Source of the DNA: a virus
Taxonomy: Duplodnaviria > Caudoviricetes
Virus record (IMG/VR): IMGVR_UViG_3300005404_000001
Coordinates: 1-47,303 of that record
Direction: 5' to 3' (one strand)
DNA: 47,303 nucleotides
The notes under the pieces are model-generated. The model did no database searches. It worked only from the letters and a program-made list of their open reading frames with translations, and had not been told where the DNA came from. Position 1 is the first letter of the stretch; every line of letters starts with the position of its first letter. Shown here piece after piece: positions 111 to 47,303 of the stretch. Position numbers and translations under genes: made by a program.

Positions 111-1912
111 TATTAAGTAGAAATCCAATGATGAGGGCTTTATTTGCTTTAGAAGTAGATAGAAGGTCTAAGTTATTAATCAAACAAGGTAAAAAAGATT
201 TTACTGCTAGTGAAATACAGACATTAGGAAGACAAGCTAAACAAGGTGCTATTGAGGAAACCCAGAAATTTATGTATAACATAGCTGAACAACCTAGACT
301 TGGTACTACATGGTTAAGATTTATAATGCCTTTCTTTGCGGCTCAAGTAGAGGTTGTAAGTGTATGGGCCGGATTAGCAAGAAGGGATCCAAGTATTATA
401 CCTAAAGCTAATATGTTATGGAAATCACCTAATCGTGCAGTTAATACAGAAGGTGGTATGGTAGAAGGTGCAGGGGGTAATTATAGTTTAATTACTACTG
501 ATGATGAAGGTAATGAATATATAACCTTAATGTTATCAGAACAATATACACAGGATAAAGAATGGTTTAATACTCATTGGGGTATGTATATTGCAGACGC
601 CACTTTTAGGTTTAACAAAGCCAGTTTTAACATGATGTTAAATAATCCAGTAGGTAATGGTGGACCGATTATAAATATATTGGCCAATGAATATTACATA
701 AGAAATCCTGAAAAAGAGAAAACTGCTATTGCAGAATACCTTTTATCATGGGGTGCTAAAGGTGGTACAAGTTTTCCTCAGAGAGTATTAGCTGGTCAAT
801 CACCTACTGTAAGAAGTATTGTTGAAGGATTTGATTTTTGGGGTGATTATAACGGACAAAAACAAAAAATGTTAATTGATGTGGCTACTTATTTTGACAC
901 CAGAGTAAGACTTGGTGAAATAGATTTGGTGACACCAGAGGAAATTTTTCATGCAACAGATACATTATGGTGGTTGTTTGCTAGTTTTAGATATTACTCA
1001 CCAGCCTCACCAATCATAGATACACCACTAAAACCTTATAGGGACGCTTATCAAGAATTAGTTGAAGAGTATGGGCCAGAGGAAGGTACAGAGAAATTTA
1101 TACAAAATTATGGTGATGAATATTTTGCAGTCACCAGAGGTAGAACAGTTAGTAAAACTGGATTGCCACCAACTATAGAAACAGAAAAAGCCACACAGAA
1201 ATTTAAAGATATTATTTTAGAGTTTCCAGAGTATGGTAGAATAATCGTAGGTGATGTGGCTGATGTAGGAGAGTTTTCATCTACCACTTTTGCGGCTCAA
1301 ATATCAAGTACCGTTGATGACCAATTTGGCCAGACTGTAATCGATAGGTTTGGTGCAGAAAGAGAATATAAGGATTTAACTGCTGATGATTTCTTAGAGG
1401 ATGGTAGATTAAAAGATATTGACGCCGATATTGGATACCAGAAATATGGTAAATTAATGGATTATGTGGATAGTGTAATGATGGAGATGGGTCTACCTAA
1501 CTTAATGGTAAAAGACGCATATAAATTAAGAGAGTATCGCACCGAGGAATTAGACAAGATATTGGAAGAACACCCAGGATTCGCAGAGGATTTTTATAAA
1601 AATAGAGATTTATCACCAGATAGATGGGATAATAAAATAGCTGATATGGAGAAAATAGTATTAGCAGTAATGGATCCTGCAATAACTAATGATTGGTTAT
1701 CAAGACCAGACATGGTAGGTTTAGCAGTTTATATAGATAACAGAAACCAAATGAAAGAAGTTTTACAAGGCAGTAAATATAAATCTCTGGACGCTAAAGC
1801 CAATACTAAACTTGCTTATGAATGGGCCTCAATAGTTGCAGATATTATTGCAGAGTATCCAGAATTTGCTAGTATATATTATAGGTACCTTGAAGGAGAC
1901 CCGGTTAATTAA
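1..1912 (+). CDS. C-terminal part of the ~2,073-aa internal virion/ejection protein that starts at 42884
   Basis: Track ORF 53..1912 is in frame with the open frame from 42884 across the join (...VIHGEEIRHILGQKDGITSMINSF...). Confidence 0.85.
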   Translation, partial: HGEEIRHILGQKDGITSMINSFVTEGFDGLGRLPTDILSRNPMMRALFALEVDRRSKLLIKQGKKDFTASEIQTLGRQAKQGAIEETQKFMYNIAEQPRLGTTWLRFIMPFFAAQVEVVSVWAGLARRDPSIIPKANMLWKSPNRAVNTEGGMVEGAGGNYSLITTDDEGNEYITLMLSEQYTQDKEWFNTHWGMYIADATFRFNKASFNMMLNNPVGNGGPIINILANEYYIRNPEKEKTAIAEYLLSWGAKGGTSFPQRVLAGQSPTVRSIVEGFDFWGDYNGQKQKMLIDVATYFDTRVRLGEIDLVTPEEIFHATDTLWWLFASFRYYSPASPIIDTPLKPYRDAYQELVEEYGPEEGTEKFIQNYGDEYFAVTRGRTVSKTGLPPTIETEKATQKFKDIILEFPEYGRIIVGDVADVGEFSSTTFAAQISSTVDDQFGQTVIDRFGAEREYKDLTADDFLEDGRLKDIDADIGYQKYGKLMDYVDSVMMEMGLPNLMVKDAYKLREYRTEELDKILEEHPGFAEDFYKNRDLSPDRWDNKIADMEKIVLAVMDPAITNDWLSRPDMVGLAVYIDNRNQMKEVLQGSKYKSLDAKANTKLAYEWASIVADIIAEYPEFASIYYRYLEGDPVN

Positions 1913-7427: not shown

Positions 7428-8540
7428 ATGGCTACACAATCAGGTACAAGGCGTACCTATGATTCCACTATCGGGGTTAAACTCGATATGGAAGACGCAA
7501 TCCATTTGATTTCACCTTTTGATGTGCCTTTCTTAGGTACTTACGGTGCAGAAGGCGGTTCAGCTTTATCATCGGAAGATACATCATCTAAAAAAGTAGA
7601 ATGGATAGAGGACGAACTCGTTCCGGCATCCGATGCAATTAATATGGGTAGCAACATAAATAACTCAGCCACAACTTTAACAGTTGATAATGGTGGTTAT
7701 TTTAAGGCTAATGACCTTATTAGAGTAGATGATGAACTTTTAACAGTATCAGCGGTATCAGGCAACAACTTAACAGTTGCTAGAGGTTATGGGGACAGTA
7801 CTGCTGCCGCCCATAATGATGATGCTGTTGTGTATATATTAGGAACACTACCAGTTGAAGGTGCGGATCCAGTATCCGGGGTAAACTTTCAAAGAGTTTC
7901 CAAATATAACATGACACAAATATACCAAGATGAGTTAGAGGTCACTCGTTCCGAGGAAAAAGCCGCTAAATACGGTGTAAGTTCTGAGATTGCATACCAA
8001 GGTGGTAAGAGGCTTAAAGAAGCCGCAATCAAAATGGAACAAAACCTTATTCTGGGATCCAGAAATGAGGACACTTCAAACAAGAAAAGGTCCATGGGTG
8101 GACTTGACTACTTCATTACAAGTAATGTGGATAGCTCAACTAACACACTAACCATGGCAAAAATCAACGACCAAATGCAGAACTCATTTGACGCCGGCGG
8201 TAATGTTTCATTACTTGTCGTAGGTGGCGCTCAAAAGAGAAAAATCAACGCATTTGATTCCGATGATATTCGTTTCTCACAGGACGAAAACATCAGAGGT
8301 GCAGTCGTAGATTACTTGGATACCGATTTCGGTAGAGTGTATGTAATGTTAAACAGATGGGTACCAAGCGATATGTTGTTTGGACTAGAACCACAATACA
8401 TCAACCTAGTATGGTTTGATAGATGGTTCATGGAGGCACTAGCAAAAACTGGTGACCGCCAACAATTTCAACTCATTGGGGAATCCTCAATGAAAGTTAA
8501 AAATGAAAAAGCCCATTTCAAATTTAACGCATTAACATAA
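7428..8540 (+). CDS. major capsid protein (SU10/DUF5309-like) with an inserted beta domain
   Basis: ISPFDVPF, KVEWIEDEL, NMTQIY, KRLKE..MEQNLI, RSMGGL, TDFG, LAKTGD motifs; AGGAG RBS. Confidence 0.88.
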   Translation: MATQSGTRRTYDSTIGVKLDMEDAIHLISPFDVPFLGTYGAEGGSALSSEDTSSKKVEWIEDELVPASDAINMGSNINNSATTLTVDNGGYFKANDLIRVDDELLTVSAVSGNNLTVARGYGDSTAAAHNDDAVVYILGTLPVEGADPVSGVNFQRVSKYNMTQIYQDELEVTRSEEKAAKYGVSSEIAYQGGKRLKEAAIKMEQNLILGSRNEDTSNKKRSMGGLDYFITSNVDSSTNTLTMAKINDQMQNSFDAGGNVSLLVVGGAQKRKINAFDSDDIRFSQDENIRGAVVDYLDTDFGRVYVMLNRWVPSDMLFGLEPQYINLVWFDRWFMEALAKTGDRQQFQLIGESSMKVKNEKAHFKFNALT

Positions 8541-25012: not shown

Positions 25013-25726
25013 TTAGAATATTCCTTTCATGTCCTTCGCAAAGCCATGTAATGAAAATATTGTATGGCTAAATGAACCTAACTCTACCGGTTCTTTAACA
25101 GAATTTTTTAATGCCTGTATAATAGCGTCACCATAAGCAATAGCTAGGATAACATCTTTAGCCCAGTGCTTATAAAAATCACAAGACCTCATAACATAGT
25201 GCATGTGGAGTTTGTAATTCCTCATCATGAAGTGATAACCAAGAGAACAAGGTACACGATTACCTTTATCTCTGTTTATATAGTCCTCATGATTCCACCA
25301 AATCGGTACCCATAATTGTCTGCTTTCTGGGTTCTTAATAAGGTGTCTAGTAATTGCCTCAACATTACCTTCTAATCTCTCAGGGTATGCGTAAGCAAAT
25401 TTACCATCCTCATGTAAAAATTGTGACCAGTATTCCTCATCATTTTTATAAGCATTACCAGGATTAGCACCTGTTGTTAGCCTCTCTTGCAATTCCTCTT
25501 TAAGATAATTGCCATCAAGATTTTTCAATCCCCATTGCCAAGTATCGTTCATAATGGTTTTGCTACTTATACTATAGGAATAGTTTATCAATTCATGGGT
25601 GAGATAATCTGGATCCTTAGATACATCTTTATCTTGCACCGAATTGGATTGGTAAACTACTGCTAGTTCTTTTAGGTCTCGGCTAATCTCGTTCTTAGCC
25701 TCCTCTAAAGTGTGGTAGTATCTCAT
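25013..25726 (-). CDS. thymidylate-synthase-fold enzyme, dCMP hydroxymethylase-like
   Basis: VPCS catalytic Cys; RSCDFYKHWAKD places Asp where ThyA has Asn177 (RSCDVFLGLPFN). Confidence 0.8.
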   Translation of the reverse strand: MRYYHTLEEAKNEISRDLKELAVVYQSNSVQDKDVSKDPDYLTHELINYSYSISSKTIMNDTWQWGLKNLDGNYLKEELQERLTTGANPGNAYKNDEEYWSQFLHEDGKFAYAYPERLEGNVEAITRHLIKNPESRQLWVPIWWNHEDYINRDKGNRVPCSLGYHFMMRNYKLHMHYVMRSCDFYKHWAKDVILAIAYGDAIIQALKNSVKEPVELGSFSHTIFSLHGFAKDMKGIF

Positions 25727-25913: not shown

Positions 25914-26762
25914 CTACATATCATAATCTACTCCTAAGCCTTCTAACTTAGAGAAGTCAAGGTCATTGATTACATTAGGCGGTCGTAGAATACCGTTGTT
26001 TGAGTTGTACCAAATCTGTCTTACTCTACGAAGTGGCCCATATAATTCATCATCGATAGGCTTACCTTGTTTCTCATATCTTAAAACCATCTCATGCCAC
26101 TTCTGTATGCGAAGGGCAGTTGGTGTTTCTAATCTTAGCACATAATCCAAAAGATTTCTATGTGCATATAACCAAGGTAAAGTTTTAAAAGCATGGACTT
26201 GACTTACATCAATTTTCCATATCAAACCTATGTCTGATAACCGTTCTCTACCAGCTATATACTTGGCTAAGACAGTAGCTAAACCAATGTCAAGACCAGA
26301 TATATAACCCATGTAGGTGACACGGCTATGAAACACGAGGGTAGGTTTAATGTGTGAATCCACTTGTCCTCTATAACTAGCGGATAACAGACAGTTACCC
26401 CATTTGTGTTTCTTAGCCGACCTTTTGTTTGACTTAAATTGCATTTCGGTGACTACACCGTCTTTGCCTCTCTTATTATATATCTCACGAGAGGCTTTGA
26501 CAAATCTTGTCACCAGTTCAGGGTCTAGGTAAGAGCGAACTAAGTTAGTCCATCGTGCTTGGGTAAACCACAAATCTCTACCTATATCAAACTCGTTAGC
26601 CAGACTATCACAAATTAACTGGACATCATATAAGTTAGTGCCAATGGACATATCATGTTCGACTGTTGGTCTAGCGATATGTGCCATAGTAGCAACTTCC
26701 ATTAATTGACTTGCGTCCGTTAAATAGATGGTCTTGCTATCATCATTTAAGCCTAATTGCAT
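25914..26762 (-). CDS. second, divergent thymidylate-synthase-fold protein (putative)
   Basis: WGNCLLS...PTLVFHSRVTYMGYISGLD parallels the TS Cys...RSxD...G...D layout; cassette context. Confidence 0.5.
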   Translation of the reverse strand: MQLGLNDDSKTIYLTDASQLMEVATMAHIARPTVEHDMSIGTNLYDVQLICDSLANEFDIGRDLWFTQARWTNLVRSYLDPELVTRFVKASREIYNKRGKDGVVTEMQFKSNKRSAKKHKWGNCLLSASYRGQVDSHIKPTLVFHSRVTYMGYISGLDIGLATVLAKYIAGRERLSDIGLIWKIDVSQVHAFKTLPWLYAHRNLLDYVLRLETPTALRIQKWHEMVLRYEKQGKPIDDELYGPLRRVRQIWYNSNNGILRPPNVINDLDFSKLEGLGVDYDM

Positions 26763-26763
26763 T

Positions 26764-27213
26764 TTAGTACCCGCTATTCTGCCTGAATTTATTTACTTCC
26801 GCTTTTCGGAAATAGTAATTGGCAAATTCTTTGGCGTCAAAGCCACTTACTATTAATAATTCCAAAAAGAAATGAAAGGTATCTGCTAACTCTTCCTTAT
26901 AGTGGGTCTCATCAGTAGCCACTTCATCTTGTTTCCATGGCTTATTCTTAAGACAATTAGTTGCCTCAGATAATTCCTCTACTACTCGGTATGCACACTC
27001 CTTTAATCTGGACTGAACATTTCTTAAATCTAGTTCGCCAAATTGGTCTGGCTCTACTACATTAGCACCGTTCTTTTTCTCTATGGATTCATATTTCTCC
27101 ATCAATTCAGTTTGCCTATTAAACATAGCCATGAGAACATTACCGGATCCCTCGCTATAGTGTTTAATAACTCCTTCTAAATCAATTTCCGAAAAGTCAT
27201 TTACATTAACCAT
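26764..27213 (-). CDS. all-alpha NTP pyrophosphatase (MazG / dimeric dUTPase-dCTPase)
   Basis: VEELSEA...KPWK...EELADTFHFF. Confidence 0.85.
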   Translation of the reverse strand: MVNVNDFSEIDLEGVIKHYSEGSGNVLMAMFNRQTELMEKYESIEKKNGANVVEPDQFGELDLRNVQSRLKECAYRVVEELSEATNCLKNKPWKQDEVATDETHYKEELADTFHFFLELLIVSGFDAKEFANYYFRKAEVNKFRQNSGY

Positions 27214-27856
27214 CGATTAATTTATCTCCTTTGTAAAGCAAATCATCTGGCCAAGTAAATGGCATAGTGATTGGCTCTACGCTATAATACCTTTTACGGT
27301 ATCGGTTTAAGTGTTGTTTAACATAGCCTTCTACAAACTCGGCACTACTGCCGTTGTAATCGTATGGTGCTACATTAAATTGGTTATGGGTGTCATCTTG
27401 TGTATTAAAGGACACATCTAATAACCTATACATTAAGGCATAAGACATAACCAGCATATCATTTTTTAAAGAAGTGTCGCTACCATCAGGTGTAAGTTCT
27501 ACACCCTCGTTAATAGCACCGTTCTGCATACAAAATAGGATTTGTGTAAAATCCATGTGTTGCTTAAGTGATTGCCACTCTCTAAGAAAGTCGCGGTTTC
27601 TTATCTTGCCCTGTCTATATATACTAGCGTAGATAGGCTCAGATATTTCTGGCGTTCTATCTAGGATATACAATCTACCATCTTGTTCTTCATCGTAGTA
27701 ATGGTCTACTGCCCAAGATGACCAGTTATCGTCCCAATCTGTGGAGACACTGGCAGGGGATTTAATGATATAACAACTCTCTGGACCAAGCCATGTTTGT
27801 ATGGCGTTAGCAAGAGTTGATTTGCCCGAGTTATCCGGGCCTTCGAGTATTATCAT
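27206..27856 (-). CDS. deoxynucleoside monophosphate kinase (thymidylate-kinase-like)
   Basis: IILEGPDNSGKST P-loop; ILDR..ISE.IY. Confidence 0.85.
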   Translation of the reverse strand: MIILEGPDNSGKSTLANAIQTWLGPESCYIIKSPASVSTDWDDNWSSWAVDHYYDEEQDGRLYILDRTPEISEPIYASIYRQGKIRNRDFLREWQSLKQHMDFTQILFCMQNGAINEGVELTPDGSDTSLKNDMLVMSYALMYRLLDVSFNTQDDTHNQFNVAPYDYNGSSAEFVEGYVKQHLNRYRKRYYSVEPITMPFTWPDDLLYKGDKLIDG

Positions 27857-27897: not shown

Positions 27898-29358
27898 TCA
27901 TTTCTGGTCTCTTACAACAACTAACAAAGCCGGATTGTCTTTTACCAACTTCTCTAAATCCTGCTTTTCCTTTAGTGCTTGTAAGACCATATAGTCTATG
28001 GATTCACTCATACACATGTGGTAAAATATGATAGGTTTAGTTTGACCTGCTCTATCTATTCGCCCTCTAGCCTGAAAATAATTTATCCAACTATAATCTA
28101 CGGAATAGAATATAGCCTTAGAACAAACTTTCTGTAAGCCATCAAGAGCCTCACCACTTGCGATTTGAATAATGAAAGGTTTATCACCTCCCTTCATTAT
28201 CCATTTATCTATGAGCCGGCCGCGTTGCTTGGCACTTACTCCGCCTCGTATCACATAAGGCGTATCAAATACCTTCTGCAACTCAGCCAACTCACTCTTA
28301 AACCTAGCAAAAATAATTACGGGCTCACCGGCCTCATTTAAATTATCGACCAGGTCTACTGTGTGGAGTAATTTGTTTTCATTAAATACCACAGATTTAC
28401 CCTCCTCATCATGAACTACATAGCCTGTCATTTCTTGCAGGCGAAGTAGTTTGGTAAGCACTATAGGAGCGAATATCATGTGGCGTTTATGAACAACCAT
28501 TCCATCCAAACTAAATCTTTCGTAGCTGGCAAACACTTTGGGATCCCAGCGAACATCTACATTTATATCGGTAACGGGGGGCAAGTCTAAACAATCTTCC
28601 TTTCGGGCACTCGACACAAAGGGGCTGTATCTTTTTTCTAGGTCATCGACCATTCTGTACCCTAAGAGTTCATATCCAGATTTGCCACCCCAGATACCGT
28701 ATTTATATCTAAAATCTGTCCAACTTATATTACCCCATATTTGAGGGTCAATACATTTTAGTTGGCTATATAAATCTAATAAGTTTTTACCTACTGGTGT
28801 ACCAGTTAATAACAAGGTAAATTTAGCAGAGGCACAAATCTTGTGGGTCTGCTTACTTCTCTTGGCGGTTGCTGATTTTATCTTTTGGCTTTCATCTAGT
28901 ATCACCATGTCAGGTTTCCATTTCATTAAGGCGTCAAATATAGGTGCCTTCTTATTTCTGGTTATGATACTTTCGTAATTAAATACCGCCACTTGTAATG
29001 GCATTTCAAGCCAGCTATCTCTCTCACTATCTTGCCACTCTTTAAAACCTTCTACTTTATCAAACACGCTACCGGTTTCTGGCCGTATAAACGAGCTGAA
29101 AGGTACCGGGGAGTGTTTGTTTAATTCTTTAGGCCATACTGTAAGAGCATTTATCGGACAAAGGACTAATACTTTCTTTACTTTACCAGACTTTTGTAAA
29201 GCCGCCGCACTATCTACGGCTATCTTGGTTTTACCAGTACCTGGATCCATGAATAAAGCATGACCTTTATCCGAATTAAATACTCTTTTTAAAGCCTCAG
29301 CCTGATGTTGATATGGTGGCGTTTTGAACTGATATTCCAAACTTCTCAAACTCCTCAT
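27898..29358 (-). CDS. SNF2-family helicase
   Basis: PYQHQ, MDPGTGKT, ILDESQ, LTGTP, QARGRIDRAGQ. Confidence 0.92.
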   Translation of the reverse strand: MRSLRSLEYQFKTPPYQHQAEALKRVFNSDKGHALFMDPGTGKTKIAVDSAAALQKSGKVKKVLVLCPINALTVWPKELNKHSPVPFSSFIRPETGSVFDKVEGFKEWQDSERDSWLEMPLQVAVFNYESIITRNKKAPIFDALMKWKPDMVILDESQKIKSATAKRSKQTHKICASAKFTLLLTGTPVGKNLLDLYSQLKCIDPQIWGNISWTDFRYKYGIWGGKSGYELLGYRMVDDLEKRYSPFVSSARKEDCLDLPPVTDINVDVRWDPKVFASYERFSLDGMVVHKRHMIFAPIVLTKLLRLQEMTGYVVHDEEGKSVVFNENKLLHTVDLVDNLNEAGEPVIIFARFKSELAELQKVFDTPYVIRGGVSAKQRGRLIDKWIMKGGDKPFIIQIASGEALDGLQKVCSKAIFYSVDYSWINYFQARGRIDRAGQTKPIIFYHMCMSESIDYMVLQALKEKQDLEKLVKDNPALLVVVRDQK

Positions 29359-29773
29359 TTAAATATTTAAAGGTTTGTGATTTTTCACCACAATTTTTTA
29401 ACAACATATCATGCCACATTTCGTAGCAGGCTTGGTTTATTTTCATCTCTATATGGGCTATGCGACCACTTTTTGGTCCTTTCTCATAGTAATCATTTAG
29501 GTCTGTAATAAGCCACTCACACAAATCAAATAATGGGCCAGGTGTATAAGAAAACCAAGGTAATAAACTCTTGGTAAAACCCCATAACATTTTAGAGTTC
29601 TCCCAATGGTAGTTCATGTCCTCAGCTTTCTGAAACTGGTCCATAATTGTCCAGAATATTAGTCTGGTTTCTGTGCTATCCCACTCAAAAGCGGTATGTA
29701 AAACAGGACCGCTACTACTTAGCCTCAGTTGATAAGGCGGTTTGGTCTTGTCTTTTTGGTTCTGATACGGCAT
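29297..29773 (-). CDS. hypothetical protein
   Basis: 158-aa ORF within the replication operon. Confidence 0.6.
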   Translation of the reverse strand: MPYQNQKDKTKPPYQLRLSSSGPVLHTAFEWDSTETRLIFWTIMDQFQKAEDMNYHWENSKMLWGFTKSLLPWFSYTPGPLFDLCEWLITDLNDYYEKGPKSGRIAHIEMKINQACYEMWHDMLLKNCGEKSQTFKYLNEEFEKFGISVQNATISTSG

Positions 29774-30224
29774 AATGCCCCTTTCTGTCTAAGGTTAGAA
29801 TTAGTTTTGCCACTATCTCTAACGATTTAACCAATAAGTATTCTGGGTGAGGGCGATACGCACTTCGCCACTCGTATGGTAAACCATCTTTCATTTCTTG
29901 GGTACCGAATACTCTTTGGTATGCTTGTCTTCCAATATATAGATGGACAATTTTATCGCCCAACCATGTAGTTTTAGATACTCTATAACCAAACTCACCT
30001 GTTGGACCAAAAAAGTCATTTGTCTTTTCTTGGTATAGGTACTCGGTTATATCATCTTGACCTAGAACTGTGGATACACCAACTCTTGTGGCATCCACGA
30101 TACATACACCAAATAAACTGTAGTCAAATACTGGATCCAACTGCTTGATTATTGATACTGCCTCATCTAGGCTTATGAACCTAAATCTTAGGTCCTTTCT
30201 ATATATATTATTACCTTCCTGCAT
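29715..30224 (-). CDS. hypothetical protein
   Basis: 169-aa ORF; GAGGT RBS. Confidence 0.6.
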   Translation of the reverse strand: MQEGNNIYRKDLRFRFISLDEAVSIIKQLDPVFDYSLFGVCIVDATRVGVSTVLGQDDITEYLYQEKTNDFFGPTGEFGYRVSKTTWLGDKIVHLYIGRQAYQRVFGTQEMKDGLPYEWRSAYRPHPEYLLVKSLEIVAKLILTLDRKGHYAVSEPKRQDQTALSTEAK

Positions 30225-30361: not shown

Positions 30362-32254
30362 TCATGTAGCTAATCTAAACACCTTGCTTTTACCTTCTTG
30401 GTCCATGGTGACTGCACCATCGGCAAGTAATTTGGTAAGCAAGGCTCTTGTTTTCTTTTCTCCCATGCCACTGACTGCCTGTATCTCAGACATGGACATT
30501 GGTTTCTTACTGAGTAAGGTAAAGATGTTAGCCTCTGTTCCAACTACACCTTCACCTTCCCAGTTATAATCTATCTCACCTATATCACCCATCTTGAGTT
30601 TAAAGGCTTGTGGTGGAGGCGCTAGCCTCTCTCTGAACTCACGCTCCACTACAACAGTTGATGAGCCATCTGTATTTGGATTTGCCTCCAGATACAAAGC
30701 ACTCTCTAACCAACCGTAGATAGTTGTAGAACCAAGCAGTTTAACACCGCCTTGTTTTCTACCCTTCTTATCACTAGAGCCTTTGCCCCAGTGATGAACC
30801 ACTATTATCGCCACATCATAGCGGTTACGAAGTTGTAATAGCCAAGATAAGATAGGTCGTATTTCATTGGCTGAGTTTTCATCAACGGATCCCATCATTA
30901 AATATAATGGGTCAAACACTACCAGTCTTATCCCTTCTGTGGCTATTATCGTTTCAATCGCCTCTCTACATGACTGGTCGGTCATGTCAAAGGCGAAATC
31001 ATTATAAAAGAACATAGGTACTTTTGCCGGGAATGTCACCGACAAAGTACCATCATCTATATTACTTGCTCCATTTAATAAACCTTTATTGTATGCCATT
31101 TTGACTACTCGGTCTTTGAGAAGGGCTGGAGAGTTTTCAACTTGCACAATGAGAGTTGGTCCTACTCCCTTCTCATTGACCTCAAACATATTCATAAATG
31201 GTCGACCGGTGGCGACAGATAAAGCCATGTCTGTGGTGACGAGAGATTTGTAGGACTTAGGTAATCCGGCAATAATACCATGACTACCCATTGTCCACCA
31301 ATCCTCTATTAGCCATTGCGGTTCTTGAATGGTCGAGCCAAGCAAATCTCCGTAGGTGACTAAGGTAGGTTTTATCTTACGCCAACTGGTCTCAACAACA
31401 CTATCACCTTCGTGGTTTGAAGGTGCTACATTTATAGTGGTTGCTGCCTTGACAATTTCTTGCCAAAGTCTTTCATCACTATCCGTTTTATCCTTGTGCT
31501 TATTCCACACACTTTGACGGACAATGAAAAACACATTTTCCTTACTTAGCCCTGCCTCTAATAACATACACTCTAATTCCCATAGCCTTGCTGACCTATC
31601 ACCCCATGCCTCTTTGGCGCTGAGTAATCTACGACCTCTTGGTTCTAGTATGTCCCAGGCTATTTCATATAATTTTTCATAATCCCCATCTTGTTGAGGT
31701 ATCTCGGTTGATTGGTCTACTACATTACCATCACTATCTGTATAACCTACATATTCCCAAACATCTTTTAGGCTATAGTCAGGGCCGTCGTCCCACAATA
31801 GTTTTACTTCTTGAGGTGGGTCGTATTTATAATTCATGGATCCTGGTACTCTTAATACTTTGGTTCGTGACCAACCGCCTTTGTCTGCACCTATCTTATA
31901 TGTTAATAAACGATTGGTTTGTTCTAAGGTGTCAGCACTTGCACCGGAGTCCAGTCTCCATAGACATTGGTATCTTTTGTGGCTACTCTCCCAAGCGATT
32001 GTGGGCCTCATATCCAGGTCGTAAGGAGACACATTGTCTAAGTCGGCCCACAACCACATATTAGGGAGTGCATTTTCTTTACGCCTTGCTCCGTCAAAAG
32101 TTAATACCGAGAAATATAAATCAAATTCACCTTTTGGTTTTTGTGTGTAAAATTCATCTGCGGTAAGTTCTCTCCATGCACCATTTTGCATGATAGGTAA
32201 GTAAGAAGTACCTGATCCTGTATCTCTTACTTGGTCTAAAAATTTACTATCCAT
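30362..32254 (-). CDS. primase (RepB/prim-pol-like) fused to AAA_25 RecA-like helicase
   Basis: WADLD, WESS..RYQCLW, ADKGGW...LRVPG; AGLPKSYKS Walker A, VVFDP, VHH. Confidence 0.9.
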   Translation of the reverse strand: MDSKFLDQVRDTGSGTSYLPIMQNGAWRELTADEFYTQKPKGEFDLYFSVLTFDGARRKENALPNMWLWADLDNVSPYDLDMRPTIAWESSHKRYQCLWRLDSGASADTLEQTNRLLTYKIGADKGGWSRTKVLRVPGSMNYKYDPPQEVKLLWDDGPDYSLKDVWEYVGYTDSDGNVVDQSTEIPQQDGDYEKLYEIAWDILEPRGRRLLSAKEAWGDRSARLWELECMLLEAGLSKENVFFIVRQSVWNKHKDKTDSDERLWQEIVKAATTINVAPSNHEGDSVVETSWRKIKPTLVTYGDLLGSTIQEPQWLIEDWWTMGSHGIIAGLPKSYKSLVTTDMALSVATGRPFMNMFEVNEKGVGPTLIVQVENSPALLKDRVVKMAYNKGLLNGASNIDDGTLSVTFPAKVPMFFYNDFAFDMTDQSCREAIETIIATEGIRLVVFDPLYLMMGSVDENSANEIRPILSWLLQLRNRYDVAIIVVHHWGKGSSDKKGRKQGGVKLLGSTTIYGWLESALYLEANPNTDGSSTVVVEREFRERLAPPPQAFKLKMGDIGEIDYNWEGEGVVGTEANIFTLLSKKPMSMSEIQAVSGMGEKKTRALLTKLLADGAVTMDQEGKSKVFRLAT

Positions 32255-34336: not shown

Positions 34337-34381
34337 TGCTTTTCTCCTATAATTACGGGATCAGAAGGCGTATATCAGGCA

Positions 34382-36723: not shown

Positions 36724-36735
36724 AATCCTTAATTG

Positions 36736-36999
36736 CTACTTCTTGGCTTTGGTCTCAGCGTTCTTTTTCACGGTTCTGGTATAATGCTCTGTGGCTGCTT
36801 TCACAACCTCATCTGGCAAGTACCAGCGTGAATTTTTGGCGTCTAAAGGTCTTGTATAGTTCTGGCGTAACCAGGCTCTCAAGCTCTTAGGACTAACGCT
36901 GAGGTTCTCTGCAAGTTCTGTAGGTGTAATGCCTGTTGGCTCAGCTTTAGCGGCTTGCTTTGGCTGTGCTTTAGGCTCTTTTACTGCCTTATCACTCAC
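36736..36999 (-). CDS. HTH DNA-binding protein A
   Basis: ITPTELAENLSVSPKSLRAWLR; GAGGTGA RBS; basic tails. Confidence 0.8.
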   Translation of the reverse strand: MSDKAVKEPKAQPKQAAKAEPTGITPTELAENLSVSPKSLRAWLRQNYTRPLDAKNSRWYLPDEVVKAATEHYTRTVKKNAETKAKK

Positions 37000-37032
37000 G
37001 GTGTCACCTCGCTTTCTAATAGTTTACCTACT

Positions 37033-37062
37033 ATTATAAACAGAACGGCAGCCACTTCGCAA
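37033..37062 (-). promoter_or_regulatory. promoter for HTH gene A
   Basis: TTGCGA-N18-TATAAT on the - strand. Confidence 0.55.
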
Positions 37063-37187
37063 CTGTTTTAGCCACTATTTGCCCTGGCATACTCCTGGAT
37101 AGCAGTACCTCTCATTTGTAGGCAAACTTGTCAAATTGGCTAATAAAAAAGCGGTATTTTCACTTGACAAGGTCATCTCATTTTGCT

Positions 37188-37295
37188 AGCCGGAACCTCA
37201 AGGGATTGACTGGGACTTCGGCTTACCGCAAGGCGGGAACCGCAAGGACCCGGGCCGGCTCACCGCAAGTTCGGTGCCAGAAGGGTCCTCCCCCA
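37188..37295 (+). ncRNA. candidate structured RNA or ssDNA element
   Basis: GC island with three ACCGCAAG, CC-GCAA-GG loops, a CTTCGG motif and stems AGCCGG/CCGGCT, CGGG/CCCG, CACCG/CGGTG. Confidence 0.35.
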
Positions 37296-37298
37296 CAC

Positions 37299-37340
37299 AA
37301 AAAGAAAAGGCGAACCCTGAACTTCCTAGAGGATCCGCCC
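37299..37340 (-). terminator. intrinsic terminator downstream of HTH gene B
   Basis: - strand GGCGGAUCC/GGGUUCGCC stem (two G-U pairs) followed by UUUUCUUUUU. Confidence 0.7.
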
Positions 37341-37368
37341 GTTAATTAAATTGACTGATTGTCTTTCT

Positions 37369-37406
37369 GGTGAGTGTGTATCTCGACACATTGACACACA
37401 CTCACC
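37369..37406. repeat. 11-bp inverted repeat
   Basis: GGTGAGTGTGT-N16-ACACACTCACC. Confidence 0.8.
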
Positions 37407-37461
37407 TATAGTTTATAGACATAGTGGAGCTTTCACACGGTCTCTCAACTCGATAGCTTAA

Positions 37462-37635
37462 TTATCGAGTGAAGTGCTTACGGGCACGATTAGCAGTCTT
37501 GCTATCGATAGCCCAGGCAGTTGATTTTGCCTCAAGCTCACGACTAGCGTTCTTGCGTAACCATGCTCGTAAAGTCTTAGGAGAAACATGTAGTTCCTCA
37601 GCTAAGATTTTAGGAGTTAATGAATTACTCATCAT
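37462..37635 (-). CDS. HTH DNA-binding protein B (57 aa, paralogue of A), absent from the track
   Basis: MMSNSLTPKILAEELHVSPKTLRAWLRKNASRELEAKSTAWAID...KHFTR; same AGCGAGGTGA RBS as gene A. Confidence 0.85.
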   Translation of the reverse strand: MMSNSLTPKILAEELHVSPKTLRAWLRKNASRELEAKSTAWAIDSKTANRARKHFTR

Positions 37636-37911
37636 ATCACCTCGCTCTCTGCTGAAATTACAGCGTAGTTAATGAGTTTAGAGATTTTAAACTTTAGCTC
37701 TCTCTCAAAACTCTCTTACTTAATATTATCATTTCGATAGATATAGTAAATTGAAAAATAGGGAATTTTCTTAATTGATAATTACACTCTTAAAAATAAT
37801 TTTATTTTTTATGATAAATTTAGTGCTTGAACTCTATTTTTGACTAAGCATTTAAATTTCTTTTATGTAGCGGCAACTGTACCAGCCTCGGGGAATATCC
37901 TGGATTTTGAG

Positions 37912-37958
37912 TTGTAAAAAAAGTGAGTGCCTACTATGCTATTGCTAGTATAGTAGGC
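37912..37958 (+). promoter_or_regulatory. promoter of the packaging/virion arm overlapped by a hairpin
   Basis: TTGTAA-N17-TATGCT; 13-bp inverted repeat 37929-37958 covers the -10. Confidence 0.45.
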
Positions 37959-38027
37959 TTGTAGATGATAATGACTGCGAGGTGATTATTCTGAAACTAC
38001 AATCTCACTACAATAAATATAACATAT

Positions 38028-40220
38028 ATGGCTAAGAAAGTAAAGAATAAATACCCACAACATGAGAGTGGTAAGCATATAGATAATGAACCTGAGGTAA
38101 AAGAGTTCTTTTATCAGAAGGTCCGACAAGGTATGAACCCATACCAAGCTGGTGAATTAATGGGTATAGGCCGTTCATTAACCAAAAGATTAATGGACAA
38201 CATGAAAGCCACGACACCGAATAAAAATGCCACTACTGATGAAGTGGCTGAGATGATGAGTAGTGGTGAGATTACCACTGATAGCGAATATCCGGATCCC
38301 AAAAAATATGAAAATTTAAATGACGCCGCACAAAGAGCCTACAATGATTTCGCCTATTTTAGACAAAGGTATTTCAATAGACGCCACATTTCCTGGCAAG
38401 TAGAGATGTGTGATATTTTGATGAAGTGGATAAAAGAAGGTCAGGACTCAAAAGAGGCCGATGTTCCTGAAGTAATTAAAGGTATGATTAATACACCACC
38501 AGGTGGAGGTAAGACCACAACAATTACTCACGACTTTGTGATATGGCTGATATGTAGAAATCGTAATGTTCGTATCGGACTTGGTTCAAGAACTACAGGT
38601 CAGAGTGAAAAGTATGTAAGGCGAGCAAGAACCACACTAGAGAAAAATGTTTTGTTAAATATGGAGTTTGGTAGATTTAAACCAGCAGAACCAGAACTAT
38701 GGCGTAAGGACGCATTTGTTGTAGATGGTGTAGAAGGTCACCAAGCCAGTTTGCATTATAAATTAGCAATGGCTGGATTTGACCCCGACAGTCCGGAAGT
38801 AATAAAAAGATTAGAGGATCCAACAGATGATATACACGATATATTAAAACAGTTGGAAAGTGTATTCGTAACCGGTGAAAAAGAGCCAACTTGTTCTGCT
38901 TTATCTCAGGACATGGGTTTTCTAGGTGGCCGTTTTGAAGTTAACCTATGGGACGACTTGTGCGATAGGTCTAATTCGAGAACGGCCGAACAAAGAGAAA
39001 GTTTAACAGAATGGTGGCACGCTGAGGCAGAATCCCGTTGTGAGCCAGGTGGAATTGTAGCATTGATTGGTACAAGATTTGGTAAGTATGATTTATACCG
39101 ACATTGTAAAGAATTGGTGTATTCAACAGATGATGACTTAGATGAAATGATTATGCAAAATGTTTCAGCCAATATGACACCAGAACAAATACAAGCGGCC
39201 AAAGATGAGGCATTAAAAATGATGGCTAAAAAATATGGTGATGATTATGAGGTCACAGAAAGAAAAAGCCAACCTATCTATAGATACGCCAGGTTTCCTG
39301 CTCATGATGATGACAAATGTAAAAATCCAAACTCATTAAAAAACGAGGACCATGTTCATTGTGTTCTTGACCCACAGAGATTTACATTTAGACATATCCA
39401 AAAAGTTCAAGCCTCGGACCCTCGTAAGTTTGCTTTGACATACCAACAGTTAGATGATGAAACAGTATCCTCACTTGTGCAAGAAGTGTGGCTTACAGGT
39501 GGTATGGACAAAGATGGTTTATTACTTCCAGGTTGTTTTGATTATAACCGAAAATTAAATGAGATACCAGATTTAACAAAAGAGGATTGTTATTCAATAG
39601 TCACCGTTGACCCCTCCGCAAATAATTGGTGGTCAATTCAGTGGTGGATTTATAACGAAAGAGAGGATAAAGATTATTTGATTGACCTACTTCGTATTCG
39701 ATTATCCGCTGGTAATTTCTTAGAGTGGAATAAACAGACTGCAACTTATAGTGGTATTATGGAAGATTGGCAAAAAAGAAGTTTAGAAATGGGATGGCCA
39801 ATATCATTGTGGGTAGTAGAACAAAACGGCGCACAGAGATACTTGCTCCAATATAGGTTCATAAAAGAATGGATGGCTAGACACAAAACTTTGATTAAGG
39901 GTCATGAAACTTCAAGAAATAAATCGGATCCTGAGTTTGGTGTTGAAACACTTAGTCCCCGATATAAGCAGGGTTTAGTTAATCTTCCTTACTCAGATTT
40001 AGATTTAAAAACAAGAGTTGTGGTAAATGAATTTAAAACAGAATTGATGGAGTATCCAGATGGATTGACCACAGATATGGTTATGGGACATTGGTTCTTG
40101 CATTTCAATAGATATTCGCTACCATCATCTTTAAAAGTTGGTAAGAATATATTAAAAGTTTTAGAACACCCATACGGAGACACTATGCCAGATAATTTAA
40201 GGACAGGTCGTGGCGAGTAA
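38028..40220 (+). CDS. terL: terminase large subunit with N-terminal HTH-like extension
   Basis: INTPPGGGKTT Walker A, LWDD Walker B, IGTRF, YQQ, VTVDPS, VVEQNGAQ, TTDMVMG. Confidence 0.9.
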   Translation: MAKKVKNKYPQHESGKHIDNEPEVKEFFYQKVRQGMNPYQAGELMGIGRSLTKRLMDNMKATTPNKNATTDEVAEMMSSGEITTDSEYPDPKKYENLNDAAQRAYNDFAYFRQRYFNRRHISWQVEMCDILMKWIKEGQDSKEADVPEVIKGMINTPPGGGKTTTITHDFVIWLICRNRNVRIGLGSRTTGQSEKYVRRARTTLEKNVLLNMEFGRFKPAEPELWRKDAFVVDGVEGHQASLHYKLAMAGFDPDSPEVIKRLEDPTDDIHDILKQLESVFVTGEKEPTCSALSQDMGFLGGRFEVNLWDDLCDRSNSRTAEQRESLTEWWHAEAESRCEPGGIVALIGTRFGKYDLYRHCKELVYSTDDDLDEMIMQNVSANMTPEQIQAAKDEALKMMAKKYGDDYEVTERKSQPIYRYARFPAHDDDKCKNPNSLKNEDHVHCVLDPQRFTFRHIQKVQASDPRKFALTYQQLDDETVSSLVQEVWLTGGMDKDGLLLPGCFDYNRKLNEIPDLTKEDCYSIVTVDPSANNWWSIQWWIYNEREDKDYLIDLLRIRLSAGNFLEWNKQTATYSGIMEDWQKRSLEMGWPISLWVVEQNGAQRYLLQYRFIKEWMARHKTLIKGHETSRNKSDPEFGVETLSPRYKQGLVNLPYSDLDLKTRVVVNEFKTELMEYPDGLTTDMVMGHWFLHFNRYSLPSSLKVGKNILKVLEHPYGDTMPDNLRTGRGE

Positions 40221-42883: not shown

Positions 42884-45800
42884 TTGGGTTTTTGGAAAGA
42901 TAAACTTGATGAATTTTTAACAGGTGTTGTTAATTTAGGTTCTGCACCAGTTGGGCTAGTCACCGATATGTGGGGCGCTAGTCGAAAAGAGGATGGCATA
43001 TCTGGTAAAGATATACAAACTGCTTTAGGCACAAGAGGTTATCAAGGTATTGCTGGTTTAAGTGATATAGCTGGTGCTACTGGTATAAAATATTTATATA
43101 ATCAAGTACCTTATTTAGCTGAAACCACAAGAACTATTTTTGATGAGGCTGAACTTTTGTGGAATCACGAATATCAAAAAGAACAAGACCGTAATCCTGA
43201 AATTTTTAACATGGCAAATAGAGCCTTTGGTACAGATATACAACCAGGCGATACTTCTATGTCAAAAGGTTTAGGTACTGCAGGTGGTGTAGTAGGTGAC
43301 GCCATTGGTGATGTAAGAGATGGTCAAGTTCCTTCATTACCTGATTTCTCTGGTAAATACCAACAAGCTGATTACAAATCACCAGGTCAAATGTTTGTGG
43401 ATAATTCACTTAATATGCAAGATTTAGAAATTGAAAAACAAGAGGAATTAAAACAATCTACTGGTTATGTGCTTTCAACAGGTATATTAGATGGTGTAGG
43501 TAGATGGATATTTGACCCCTTAGTTGTGGGAGGTAAAGGTGCTAAGAAAGTAGGTGAAAACCGTGGTGCATTTATGGGTGTTGATAGACTTTATGGTAAA
43601 GCTAAAAAGAAAATAGAGAGAAAAATTGGTAGACAGATAATAGGTTTAGATGAAGTAAAAGATAGTGTAAGAGCCTATGATGGAGAATTAGGACCAGCAT
43701 TAAAACCAGGCGAAAACGCATATATTATTATGGACGCTGATGAGGCTAAACAAGCAGGATTATGGGATAATGCCTCAAATTTAAATTTAAGAAATTCAGA
43801 AGGAGCCGTTGAAAGTGTATCACCAATTATGCCAAGAACAAAGGCATTATTAGAAACTGCAAAAAGAGATTTACCTAATGACAGTCCAATCTTTAATTGG
43901 GACGAGGGTGGTGACATTTACCATTATCAAAACATAAGTAAAGATATAGATGTGGGAACCAGTAAAGCTAGAGAACTATTTGATTTCTTTTTAGAACAAG
44001 AAGGCCAAGGTTATAAAGGTGTAAGTAAATTAAGATGGGTATTGGATCCCGACAATAGTAAATTACCTAATGCCACTGACCTTAAAAATATGTATAAAAT
44101 TATTGATGAGAGGTGGAGAATATATGAACAAACTCAATCCGCTGGTAGTTGGTCAGGTGCAAGAGAATTAACAGGCGAAACTAGAAAATTAGCTGAGGAG
44201 TTAGGAGTAGGCACAAGAGGAATAAGAGGAATAAGAGGTCAAGACCAATACATGGGTAATTTTTATGACTTAAGTCCAATAAGAGCAAAAGAAATTGTGA
44301 CCGAGATATTTTTAAGAAAAATTGATGAGGCTTATCCAAGTGCAACAAGTTTTACTTCAAGGCTTGCCTCACAAACAGGTAAGAAAATTACACAAGGTGA
44401 ACAAGGTAAAGTTATTTTCTTTAACAAAGATGAGGCTTTAGGTGCCGCTAAAGCGGACGCAGAATGGCGACAAGCAAATACTACAGTTGAGGCTAGTTTA
44501 GGTAAATTTAGTATGGACAATAAAACTGTGGTAGTAGAGTTAGACCCGCAGGGTCTACCTGTTATTATACCCCGCTGGGACGCCGATGGACGATGGGCAA
44601 TCACAGATGTTTCCAGATTAGATAAATCCTCTATTGTTAAAAAAGATGTGTATGGTTTAAATGATATACCAGAAGGTGCAACTGCACCAATGGCATTTTG
44701 GACAAGTAATGGTAATAAAGCTAGTAGATTATTCGAGGATTTAGAAGGTGCTAGAGAGGCCAATAGAAAAATATTAAATGCTTATGAGGCTGATGATGGA
44801 CCAAATGTAGAGTTATCAGAGAATATGATGGCTAATATTGTAATGCAAGATGAGTATGGTAAAACTGGTTTATTAGACCAGCTTATAAATCATCCTAGAG
44901 TTAAGACTGCCGTAGAAATAATGGAAGGAACTAAAACTGGGGGATTTACAAGAAGGTCTAAAAAGCCTATGGAGGCTGATGAGATATATAAATACTTCTT
45001 TCAAGATGTGACCGGTGGAGACAAGATAGCCAGTATGTTATCAAAGGCTCAAGGTACTGAGGCTAAGATGGAAGTATTAATGGCAGTCATGGGAATAAGG
45101 ATGCCGAGGTCTGCAAAAGGTATACCTGGTGAAGTAATGTTTGAATTAAATGATATAAAATTCCAACAAGACTTACTTAAATCAAATATTATAAATGCCA
45201 GAAAAGCCAAAAATGCACTAGGTGAAACTACACCGGACGCACATGTTCAACAATTTTATAAAGGTTATAAGAAACTTAAATCAAAAGATGAGATTGAGGA
45301 AATTGATCCCGCAACCTTAAAAGAAGTTGAGGAAATAGACGCTTATTTAGAAAGTAAGTTTCCTAATAGAAATATGACTAGACCAATAGAGGAGTATTGG
45401 GCATTGAACTCAGATGAGGCACAAAAGGCTTTACTTGATTTAGATATACAAGAAAAACTATTAACCAAGAAAAGAAAATTAATGGACGCAGACTTACAAA
45501 AAGCCGTTGATGTTGCTACTGCTGAGGAGTTATCTGGTATGCTACAACATGTGCCTTACACAAGTGCAGGTCGTAGATTAAAATATGCAATCCGTAATAG
45601 TAATGTTTATGAAAATGCACCAATTGGAACTGGTTGGATAGTAAAACCAATTAAAACTGCCGTAGAGTTTGCACCAAGAGCCTGGTTAAATTTATCAGAG
45701 AGTAAAGGTCATCTACAAATAGAAAGATGGATACAAGAGGCAAGAGCAAGATTTGGTTATGATGTAATAACACCAGCAGAGATGTCTAAATGGACTAATA

Positions 45801-47303
45801 GATTTTTAAATCAAACAAGAGATGTGGATAAATTAGAAACTGTATTAGCCATGACTGAGGATATTATTCAGAGAATAGGTAAATCAAAAGGTTTAGATGA
45901 GGACGCTATGACTGCCGTTATATCAGAGATGAGAAAAGGAACTCTTACAACTAGAGGTATGTTGCAAGGTCGTAGATATGGGCCAGCAAGAGATAGTGAT
46001 TTGGCAGAGATAATGCAGAAACCACAAGATTTTATAGATAAAACCAAGAGTAAAGCGGGTTCTTATGCAGACACCATACAATACTTTGATACAGAAACTG
46101 GAATTTTTGTAGAAAGAACTTTACCTGTATTATCCACTCAATTAGCTAACTGGGTACCACTTACAAACTTAAGGTCATTACAAAGAGAAATAGCTTTACA
46201 TGGTAAATGGATTAACAAATATGGACCACAAGGTGCATTACAAGTTATAGAGGCTATGGGTGAAGGATTTTATAGTATCTGGAAACCAAGTGTTTTGTTA
46301 AGAGGTGCATGGCCTATTCGTGTGGTATCTGATGAACAGTTAAGAATTTTAGCTAGAGGTATAGGATTAACTAATCACATTATGGCTATATCTAAAACAC
46401 CTATGTCTAGGCACATATTTTGGAATACTCAAATAGGTACTACTAAAGGATTACAAAGAGTAGGAGCTATAGCAGGTTCTATAGTTAATGCACCAATAAG
46501 AGGTGGTACACAAGGATTAGTTTTATTAGCAAAAGTGGCTGATAAATTTATAGAGATTAATCCTAGTAAAAGACATTTATCAAAAATTATGGACCAATTG
46601 GGTTCTGATGTAGAGCCTTTAGTTTCTGCAAGAGCGGGATTTTCTACTCCAACTGATAATGTGTTAGCTCAATATGGATCCTTTTTAACAAAGTCTGAAC
46701 AAACATTATTATCTAAATTTAATAGAAACCTTAAATCTGGTGAATATAAATCCATACCTAAAGGTGCTGAGGGTTATTCTACTCAATGGATAAGAGCATT
46801 AAATTACCAACTTAATGGAGACGCATTTGGCCATAAGATAGTTAAAGCTGGTTTAGATAGTTTTGATGAAGTGGCTAAATTAGATTATTTTACTCTCGAT
46901 GATTTTGTGACCATTTATCAAAGAAACGCACATAAAGCCGCTAAAGCATTTTTCAATACAGAACAAGGTAAGGCTTATTCAGCTAGATTACCATGGCGAA
47001 GTGCTGACATAGCCGGTGCAAATTGGGCTACAGATTGGGCTGATGATATTATGGAGATAATATTACAATACACAATGATAACCACAAAAGGTGCTGATAG
47101 TCAAACTTATAACCTCTTTAAAAAACTTTATGGTGGTAAGTTATCTGGTAATGATTTAGCTAAATTTCCTGAACAATATTGGCCAGCAGTTATACACGGT
47201 GAGGAAATAAGACACATACTTGGTCAAAAAGATGGAATAACTTCTATGATTAATTCTTTTGTGACCGAAGGTTTTGATGGGTTAGGACGATTGCCTACCG
47301 ATA
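42884..47303 (+). CDS. N-terminal part of a ~2,073-aa internal virion/DNA-ejection protein (continues at 1..1912)
   Basis: TTG start directly after the previous TAA (MGFWKDKLDEF...); frame spot-checked as open and no closed + ORF appears in the track here. Confidence 0.85.
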   Translation, partial: MGFWKDKLDEFLTGVVNLGSAPVGLVTDMWGASRKEDGISGKDIQTALGTRGYQGIAGLSDIAGATGIKYLYNQVPYLAETTRTIFDEAELLWNHEYQKEQDRNPEIFNMANRAFGTDIQPGDTSMSKGLGTAGGVVGDAIGDVRDGQVPSLPDFSGKYQQADYKSPGQMFVDNSLNMQDLEIEKQEELKQSTGYVLSTGILDGVGRWIFDPLVVGGKGAKKVGENRGAFMGVDRLYGKAKKKIERKIGRQIIGLDEVKDSVRAYDGELGPALKPGENAYIIMDADEAKQAGLWDNASNLNLRNSEGAVESVSPIMPRTKALLETAKRDLPNDSPIFNWDEGGDIYHYQNISKDIDVGTSKARELFDFFLEQEGQGYKGVSKLRWVLDPDNSKLPNATDLKNMYKIIDERWRIYEQTQSAGSWSGARELTGETRKLAEELGVGTRGIRGIRGQDQYMGNFYDLSPIRAKEIVTEIFLRKIDEAYPSATSFTSRLASQTGKKITQGEQGKVIFFNKDEALGAAKADAEWRQANTTVEASLGKFSMDNKTVVVELDPQGLPVIIPRWDADGRWAITDVSRLDKSSIVKKDVYGLNDIPEGATAPMAFWTSNGNKASRLFEDLEGAREANRKILNAYEADDGPNVELSENMMANIVMQDEYGKTGLLDQLINHPRVKTAVEIMEGTKTGGFTRRSKKPMEADEIYKYFFQDVTGGDKIASMLSKAQGTEAKMEVLMAVMGIRMPRSAKGIPGEVMFELNDIKFQQDLLKSNIINARKAKNALGETTPDAHVQQFYKGYKKLKSKDEIEEIDPATLKEVEEIDAYLESKFPNRNMTRPIEEYWALNSDEAQKALLDLDIQEKLLTKKRKLMDADLQKAVDVATAEELSGMLQHVPYTSAGRRLKYAIRNSNVYENAPIGTGWIVKPIKTAVEFAPRAWLNLSESKGHLQIERWIQEARARFGYDVITPAEMSKWTNRFLNQTRDVDKLETVLAMTEDIIQRIGKSKGLDEDAMTAVISEMRKGTLTTRGMLQGRRYGPARDSDLAEIMQKPQDFIDKTKSKAGSYADTIQYFDTETGIFVERTLPVLSTQLANWVPLTNLRSLQREIALHGKWINKYGPQGALQVIEAMGEGFYSIWKPSVLLRGAWPIRVVSDEQLRILARGIGLTNHIMAISKTPMSRHIFWNTQIGTTKGLQRVGAIAGSIVNAPIRGGTQGLVLLAKVADKFIEINPSKRHLSKIMDQLGSDVEPLVSARAGFSTPTDNVLAQYGSFLTKSEQTLLSKFNRNLKSGEYKSIPKGAEGYSTQWIRALNYQLNGDAFGHKIVKAGLDSFDEVAKLDYFTLDDFVTIYQRNAHKAAKAFFNTEQGKAYSARLPWRSADIAGANWATDWADDIMEIILQYTMITTKGADSQTYNLFKKLYGGKLSGNDLAKFPEQYWPAVIHGEEIRHILGQKDGITSMINSFVTEGFDGLGRLPTD

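Follow-up and report, generated by a model that had tools for sequence, protein, structure and literature searches.

By the usual reading, phage genomes lose the words that bacterial defenses recognize. Among chromosomes, the cyanobacterial octamer HIP1 is an over-represented palindrome with a GATC core that occurs in all reading frames, is evenly spread and is linked to methylation, its function being unknown, while the Dam/MutH signal of E. coli operates within a limit on the spacing of its sites. We analyzed the 47,303-nucleotide genome of an uncultured phage (Duplodnaviria; Caudoviricetes; IMG/VR record IMGVR_UViG_3300005404_000001; "the window" below means this whole stretch) in which one such word, GGATCC, is kept, spaced and renewed, and other GATC is nearly absent. 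The lattice is real, extends through the phage's clade and is only half explained by known biology; that it is kept may be categorically new. We did not find the pattern described in the literature, but subscription journals and bioRxiv supplements lay outside our coverage, so its absence from print is not established.

An exact count gave 41 GGATCC sites and 44 GATC in total, the three others starting at 32214, 34359 and 45305. All of these coordinates matched the initial annotation, a hand reading of the sequence alone, as did its claim that the copy at 45305 splits the largest gap. Base composition (38.1% GC) predicts 5.9 GGATCC and 152-164 GATC, close to the 5-6 and 150 estimated by hand. 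The gaps between GGATCC sites averaged 1157 bp with a coefficient of variation (CV) of 0.42, again as estimated (1.15 kb and 0.4), and only 2 of 40 were shorter than 500 bp; none of 200,000 uniform placements was as regular. Short gaps in the window numbered 4 versus 14 expected, and long gaps 0 versus 5.8. Of the 1,261 words 4-7 letters long that occur 25-150 times in the window, GATC was the most regular (z -4.1) and GGATCC the second (z -3.9), the next word reaching -2.75. The sites fell in all reading frames (x-Asp-Pro 22, Gly-Ser 13, Arg/Trp-Ile 5), as claimed, although placement between genes holds for just one site, the only one outside the gene set. Codon-preserving shuffles (n = 300) held 10.5±2.4 genic GGATCC (maximum 18) versus 40 observed, and 141 genic GATC versus 42 observed. 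The claim that selection acts on the DNA is supported. We saw no consensus by eye beyond the hexamer, any base following CC. GATC was denser at 29243-35653 (11 in 6.4 kb, versus about 0.8 per kb elsewhere), for which higher GC may be a partial explanation.

The initial annotation missed a flank rule that runs through the whole genome. We compared strand counts in the window's genes with expectations from 100 codon shuffles and found that GATC, GANTC, GTAC, GTNAC, GCWGC, GCGC and TCTTC were depleted unless the edge C preceded another C. Copies without a G/C flank were nearly gone (observed/expected: GATC 0/152, GANTC 0/138, GTAC 8/129, GTNAC 4/119, GCWGC 0/61, GCGC 0/30), whereas copies with one flank were near neutral (GANTC 27/37, GTAC 87/69, GTNAC 53/46, GCWGC 11/16, GCGC 12/15), and TCTTC stood at 36/25 when followed by C versus 6/108 in other contexts. 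None of 390 5-mers containing CC or GG fell below 0.25 of expectation, versus 30 of 632 others, and the base 3' of CC was unconstrained. Words are depleted in the window beyond codon and amino-acid expectation, as under restriction avoidance, and C-containing words are purged outside CC, which is not what full substitution protecting every C would leave. GGATCC is GATC shielded on both strands. GATC departs from the rule twice over: a single flank does not spare it (2/56), and with both flanks it is enriched 3.9-fold.

Relatives were defined by their SU10-type major capsid protein, close ones having a capsid 84-96% identical; L056, which is the window, and L112 and L125, which are 100% identical, were dropped from counts, and the pieces within each of the sets G008/G009, G010/L115 and G002/L060/L061 are not independent of one another. 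The flank rule was seen again in all 10 close pieces, with a set of avoided words that differed by lineage. Every GATC in the close relatives has a 5' G or a 3' C, some genomes holding only GGATCC and others also one-sided GGATC; pooled over 12 partly redundant close pieces (210 kb), none of 293 GATC was unshielded versus 464 expected. The rule would most simply result from chemical marking of CC/GG, with enzymes blocked wherever their sites overlap the mark, and modification at CC is, in our judgment, the probable cause of the rule. Sequence does not separate C from its partner G as the marked base; the gene content described below favors C.

The initial annotation had held that avoidance explains neither the enrichment nor the spacing. 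We built an avoidance-aware null, a synonymous-swap chain forbidding 39 avoided patterns (108 samples). Forbidding the other avoided words raised the expected number of GGATCC from 10.5 to 20.6±3.5 (maximum 28), so that the 40 genic sites lie 5.6 standard deviations above it and the excess shrinks from 7-fold to about 2-fold. The CV in this null was 1.14 (minimum 0.64) versus 0.46 for the genic sites. The surviving sites thus exceed the neutral number and are not randomly placed. Compensation for avoidance accounts for about half of the number of GGATCC sites and for none of their spacing, and the earlier claim stands for the spacing but only in part for the enrichment. Other shielded words were spaced at random (CV 0.88-1.40), and GGTSAC was enriched 2.4-fold by compensation. 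Enrichment of GAGGA, GACGC and GGACG, weighed as a signal, was read as compensation for the avoided GAAGA, GATGC and GGATG; GACGC was randomly spaced.

A lattice without any benefit would arise if shielding made GGATCC tolerable, escape from forbidden neighbors inflated its count and an enzyme needing two sites in cis, as the type IIE enzyme Sau3AI does, repelled close pairs. Compensation does double the null and enrich other words, and a long-range repulsion model (beta about 2) matches both the CV and the longest gap. However, a pure cost should put counts below the null rather than above it, and a model of short-range repulsion reached a CV of 0.41 in 0 of 60 runs at each of 6 settings. The relatives G002 and G008 retain gaps of 17-70 bp yet lack long ones. 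The variance of counts rose roughly in proportion to the size of the counting window (0.66, 1.72, 3.77), which may be read as unlike a rigid long-range gas. We consider an origin without benefit improbable. Since the shape of the gaps is fitted equally by long-range repulsion and by a model of coverage from the nearest site, the argument for a benefit rests on the excess; that a shielded GATC carries a benefit which saturates with proximity seems to us probable.

Of the 10 close pieces, 8 had GATC spacing that departed from random (P<0.05). Where one-sided GGATC occurs, plus and minus sites fill each other's gaps, in both directions at P<0.02 in 3 of 7 pieces (G008, G009 and L060) and significantly in one direction in 2 further pieces, and regularity is not seen consistently across pieces on either the sense or the antisense strand, single-strand gaps reaching 3.3-4.4 kb. 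The unit is therefore the GATC duplex, independent of orientation. A GATC core with orientation-free, kilobase spacing is what a Dam/MutHLS signal would show; the orientation-dependent regularity on a single strand that a Chi or primase site would show was not found. The earlier proposal of a distributed cis-signal remains the best reading, but the signal is not the hexamer, because the flanks are set by the general CC/GG rule and relatives use one-sided GGATC.

By the counts, GGATC strand-sites number about 1.7 per kb in the GGATCC-only as well as the one-sided state. A model of per-strand economy was favored at first and was weakened by a shift test. The constant density, the regular sense strand of several segments and the phage's own primase-helicase would fit an oriented pentamer GGATC read on each strand, be it a primase site spaced like Okazaki fragments, a Chi-like site, or one for the packaging or ejection motor. 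The mutual filling of gaps and the inconsistent strands speak against this, as does the random GGATC of distant relatives with a homologous primase, and we hold it very unlikely, together with the ejection-loading role suggested initially.

Density is maintained while positions turn over, which the initial annotation had proposed to check in related phages. At 78% identity, 10 of 21 sites were kept (background 0.43) and 7 were new, so that sites were no better conserved than background; site 10984 was lost in one relative, with a new site 6 bp away. Contigs of four runs differed from positions 16500-36400 at 1,348 places (40 listed), contigs being unable to reveal ends or marks.

We also examined stretches of 25 kb (50 kb for PBC2) from five phages of Bacillus cereus. 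In Bc431v3, 41 of 44 GATC lie in GGATC(A/G) with a CV of 0.61 (P<2e-4), and in BCP8-2, 40 of 46 lie in GGATC or GATCC with a CV of 0.78 (P=0.049). As in the window, GATC is almost confined to a shielded word and evenly spaced; unlike the window, these are unrelated myoviruses with an asymmetric shielding word, and GGATCC is absent from the stretches examined. Counting against a benefit of GATC, the stretches of B4, BPS13 and PBC2 held no GATC at all, and GATC is therefore dispensable for some Bacillus cereus phages. Phages drop GATC wholly or, where they are able to shield it, keep it spaced. A cultured, unrelated phage with the same pattern makes the presumed benefit testable at the bench.

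Together these data suggest two opposing pressures, under which GATC and other restriction-type words would be removed except beside CC/GG and shielded GATC would be retained. The phage's own cytosine modification at CC would shield the surviving copies, each site would still pay a cost to GATC-cutting enzymes, and a benefit falling with distance to the nearest site would, with that cost, leave few sites, evenly spread. If an enzyme still attacked sites shielded on one strand, one-sided copies would become costlier and GGATCC would be left. Sau3AI nicks half-modified sites, and we think it somewhat more probable than otherwise that a GATC- or GGATC-cutting enzyme of this behavior drove the lineage from GGATC to GGATCC. 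Each shielded GATC may act as a short-range self-mark or as a decoy against a GATC-reading host defense. Because the pattern recurs in unrelated phages and is optional, we place the benefit most likely in host defense, giving about half of the remaining probability to this rather than to repair or a phage process. Taken whole, a reading that joins shielding at CC to a kept GATC with a short-range benefit is plausible, though it falls short of an even chance. Its widest form is doubtful: a widespread bacterial defense would take marked GATC as a short-range self signal and destroy DNA lying farther than 1-2 kb from one, viruses that can shield GATC from ordinary restriction would converge on evenly spaced lattices and so escape it, and the CC-only cytosine modification would be made by a pair of proteins with a thymidylate synthase (TS) fold, one of them acting on DNA.

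The source of such a modification may lie in the replication block, which runs polA, TS1, TS2, pyrophosphatase, kinase and SNF2 helicase. According to the available text of PMC13326640, an Asp in TS homologues specifies dCMP and D169N marks 5-hydroxy-dCMP synthases. The Asp of TS1 lies at the N177 position, aligns with that of AfhB and is conserved in 9 of 9 homologues covering it; the D169N signature is missing, and TS1 has RSCD where AfhB has RSQN. Because the dCMP-specifying Asp and RSCD are retained, TS1 is predicted to be a 5-methyl- or 5-hydroxymethyl-dCMP synthase, not a 5-hydroxy-dCMP synthase. The TS2 model (pLDDT 91) has AfhB, MilA and TS as top Foldseek matches, and TS2 is a candidate for the context-specific step. 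The linked dCTPase-like and deoxynucleoside monophosphate kinase genes expected of TS-based cytosine modification are present as predicted family matches, and the balance tips slightly toward this cluster making the CC modification.

The block recurs in cultured actinophages, at 35270-37942 in mycobacteriophage Muddy (L156), which has the same gene order plus one extra gene after polA, and at 36667-40195 in Gordonia phage Lauer (L157); homologues of the cluster enzymes also occur in 68 Gordonia phage records. Matches to TS2 number 87 among phage records, almost all from actinophages, where it is annotated as hypothetical. In the distant relatives G003, G004, G005, G006 and G007, polA is longer (about 810-830 aa) by an N-terminal part that we take to be uracil-DNA-glycosylase-like, and a deaminase-like gene adjoins TS1; the window's clade has neither. 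Over the whole Lauer genome, GGATCC is the sole strongly depleted 4-6-mer (1 site where about 16 would be expected), opposite to what the window shows.

Searches of PHROGs and Pfam (59 open reading frames, ORFs), NCBIfam (30 ORFs) and PADLOC (23 ORFs) matched no methyltransferase gene, orphan ORFs remaining, so that the absence of a recognizable phage methyltransferase held, and with it shielding by an orphan methyltransferase of the phage lacks a matching gene; the same scans gave no MutH-like gene, and no glycosyltransferase was found in the phage. The two orphan genes at 29297 and 29715 have 3 close homologues and 2 matches among 1.84 billion representatives, the Atlas being blank, and their model had a pLDDT of 38.5. 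These orphans are the candidates if the sites served a process coded by the phage, whether attack on host or competitor DNA at bare GATC by a nuclease that marks its own genome, or loading of the modifying enzyme. Unshielded GATC is the sole class at zero in every close relative, as if the cutter travels with the phage, and the orphans co-occur with the GGATCC-only state. That correlation amounts to about two lineages versus one, however, the orphans lack a family, relatives or a usable model, G008 and G009 are evenly spaced without them, and the convergent pattern of an unrelated Bacillus phage suggests a cause external to the phage. We regard a phage-coded process as improbable too.

An actinobacterial host is likely, because TS2 matches nearly all fall in actinophages and two distant relatives carry WhiB-like genes. 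The phage was found in marine or seawater runs from several studies, one study being labeled freshwater, and Candidatus Actinomarina fits by habitat and low GC, with no direct link found. Among 65 incomplete Actinomarinales genomes, Dam-type methylases were patchy (11, of which 9 strong), C5 methylases occurred in 13, and a Sau3AI-like pair and dndC, the latter bearing on a Dnd phosphorothioate self-mark, in 1 each; the DpnII family was found in none. In L200 and L202 a Dam-type methylase adjoins a gene for a GHKL ATPase, in L200 along with a DarT/NADAR pair, and this locus is possibly a defense island and a candidate reader of GATC. L207 encodes a 735-aa fusion of m6A (D12) and C5 methylase domains. 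The enrichment of the motif in a predicted host that the initial annotation proposed to look for was not seen: five Actinomarina genomes held 39-72 GGATCC per 1.0-1.1 Mb, near a reversed-pattern control, and no lattice, although the true host is unconfirmed. The phage might mimic a host lattice such as HIP1, or a BamHI- or AlwI-type methylase of the host might cross-protect it, and an AlwI-type m6A methylome (GGATCD, GATCC) is reported for one marine genome bin in the available text of PMC8919816. These chromosomes, however, are 13-22 times sparser in GGATCC than the phage, and neither idea can account for six other words obeying the flank rule as well, which makes them highly improbable.

If a MutH- or Sau3AI-like nuclease nicked the new strand at briefly hemi-modified shielded GATC, the sites would serve strand discrimination or the start of recombination in each kilobase; the palindromic GGATCC would serve both daughters, and a one-sided site would leave one daughter bare. 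The distance scale resembles that of E. coli repair. The orientation independence of the sites, the special loss of one-sided GATC and the Sau3AI-like enzyme in one candidate host genome agree with such a role, and GATC sites cut the mutation rate of phiX174 eightfold, according to the available text of PMC5014478. On the other side, MutS was found in 0 of the 65 incomplete Actinomarinales genomes, which disfavors the initially suggested repair signal read by a host MutHLS system, the phage scans gave no MutH-like gene, and selection on mutation rate is weak. We judge nicking or repair entry unlikely.

Further observations weigh against CC shielding with a benefit in host defense. GAAGC, GAGTC and GCTGT are not rescued by their flank, and CATCC/CATTC is rescued by a 5' C instead. 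The rate of C-to-T change is not raised at CC (0.039, versus 0.039-0.055 in other non-CG contexts and 0.087 at CG), and a nucleotide-pool pathway alone gives no context specificity. Muddy and Lauer, with both TS1 and TS2, and CPD4, with TS1, show no clear CC rule, and the distant relatives G003-G007 show it partly (G004 and G007) or hardly, those that carry both TS genes showing no more than a partial rule. Spacing did not reach significance in G001 or L115, only 1 of 9 comparisons showed significant replacement of lost sites nearby, and long-range repulsion fits the shape of the gaps as well as the coverage model does. No protein reading the GATC sites was found; the capsid had no match in a scan of genome_contigs, the host being unconfirmed, and only 3 weak partial matches in the 65 Actinomarinales genomes. 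We know of no host-defense system with this logic.

Coordinates of the lattice, the one-sided sites and the genes discussed in the text (positions in the window).
Feature	Position	Strand	Basis or remark
GGATCC lattice, 41 sites	385..46681	no strand	exact count, spacing statistics
One-sided site GATCC, in CTGATCCT	32214..32218	+	exact count
One-sided site GGATC, in GGGATCAG	34358..34362	+	exact count
One-sided site GATCC; cuts longest GGATCC gap into 1260 + 1372 bp	45305..45309	+	
TS1, thymidylate synthase homologue with dCMP-specifying Asp and intact RSCD	25013..25726	-	homology; residue rules in the available text of PMC13326640
TS2, divergent protein of thymidylate synthase fold, invariant Cys	25914..26762	-	model, Foldseek, invariant columns
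MazG/dUTPase-like pyrophosphatase, predicted dCTPase	26764..27213	-	family match only
Nucleotide monophosphate kinase-like protein	27206..27856	-	family match only
DNA polymerase A; best cultured matches mostly actinophages, about 35% identity	23161..25011	-	
RepB-type primase fused to AAA_25 helicase; weighed and disfavored as site reader	30362..32254	-	
Two orphan genes	29297..30224	-	in the GGATCC-only genomes spanning it (window, G010, L115); not in G008, G009
SU10-type major capsid protein	7428..8540	+	family match; defines relatives
110-bp repeat of positions 1-110	47194..47303	+	contig circular, complete

The window, whose first 110 bp recur at its end as a terminal repeat, represents a complete and circularly permuted genome. 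Because it encodes an SU10-type capsid, a terminase and large putative internal proteins and has no recognizable tape-measure gene, the phage is likely a podovirus. A single very large gene (about 2,070 aa) spans the contig ends (42884-47302 and 1-1912) and likely encodes an internal virion protein. A pyrimidine-dimer glycosylase-like gene at 20308-20802 is shared with G002 and L115 and replaced or absent in G008. The GC-rich intergenic stretch at 37185-37300, in a divergent non-coding region, carries three copies of ACCGCAAG; it folds no better than shuffles and has no Rfam match, nothing over 35900-38100 scoring below E 0.11. No tRNA or tmRNA was found in the phage.

The flank rule predicts a dinucleotide-restricted base modification from sequence alone and names candidate enzymes for it, and asking which flanks rescue avoided words can expose hidden DNA modifications in other uncultured viruses. 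As in the restriction-site avoidance of virulent phages, many palindromic and type IIS words have been purged synonymously from the window; unlike plain avoidance, the purge depends on a single dinucleotide context, and one word is retained in excess at even spacing. HIP1 resembles the lattice in its GATC core, its use of all reading frames and its even spread; unlike HIP1, the lattice lies in a phage rather than a chromosome, other GATC is nearly absent, and the tested host candidates carry no lattice. The Dam/MutH signal of E. coli shares the GATC core, acts in either orientation and has a kilobase range, but phiX174 avoids GATC whereas the window keeps it (available text of PMC5014478); moreover, no MutS was found in the incomplete genomes of the candidate hosts, and shielding fixes the flanks in the window. 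The TS-based cytosine modification systems (T4 gp42, Xp12, HY126 AfhB and RB69 gp48), as far as described in the available text of PMC13326640 and 10.1101/2024.12.05.627091, likewise set a dCMP-type TS, a pyrophosphatase and a kinase beside a polymerase. These systems replace cytosine throughout, whereas the sequence of the window implies shielding at CC only, and the window differs further in that no glycosyltransferase was found in it and that it carries a second TS-fold protein, TS2.

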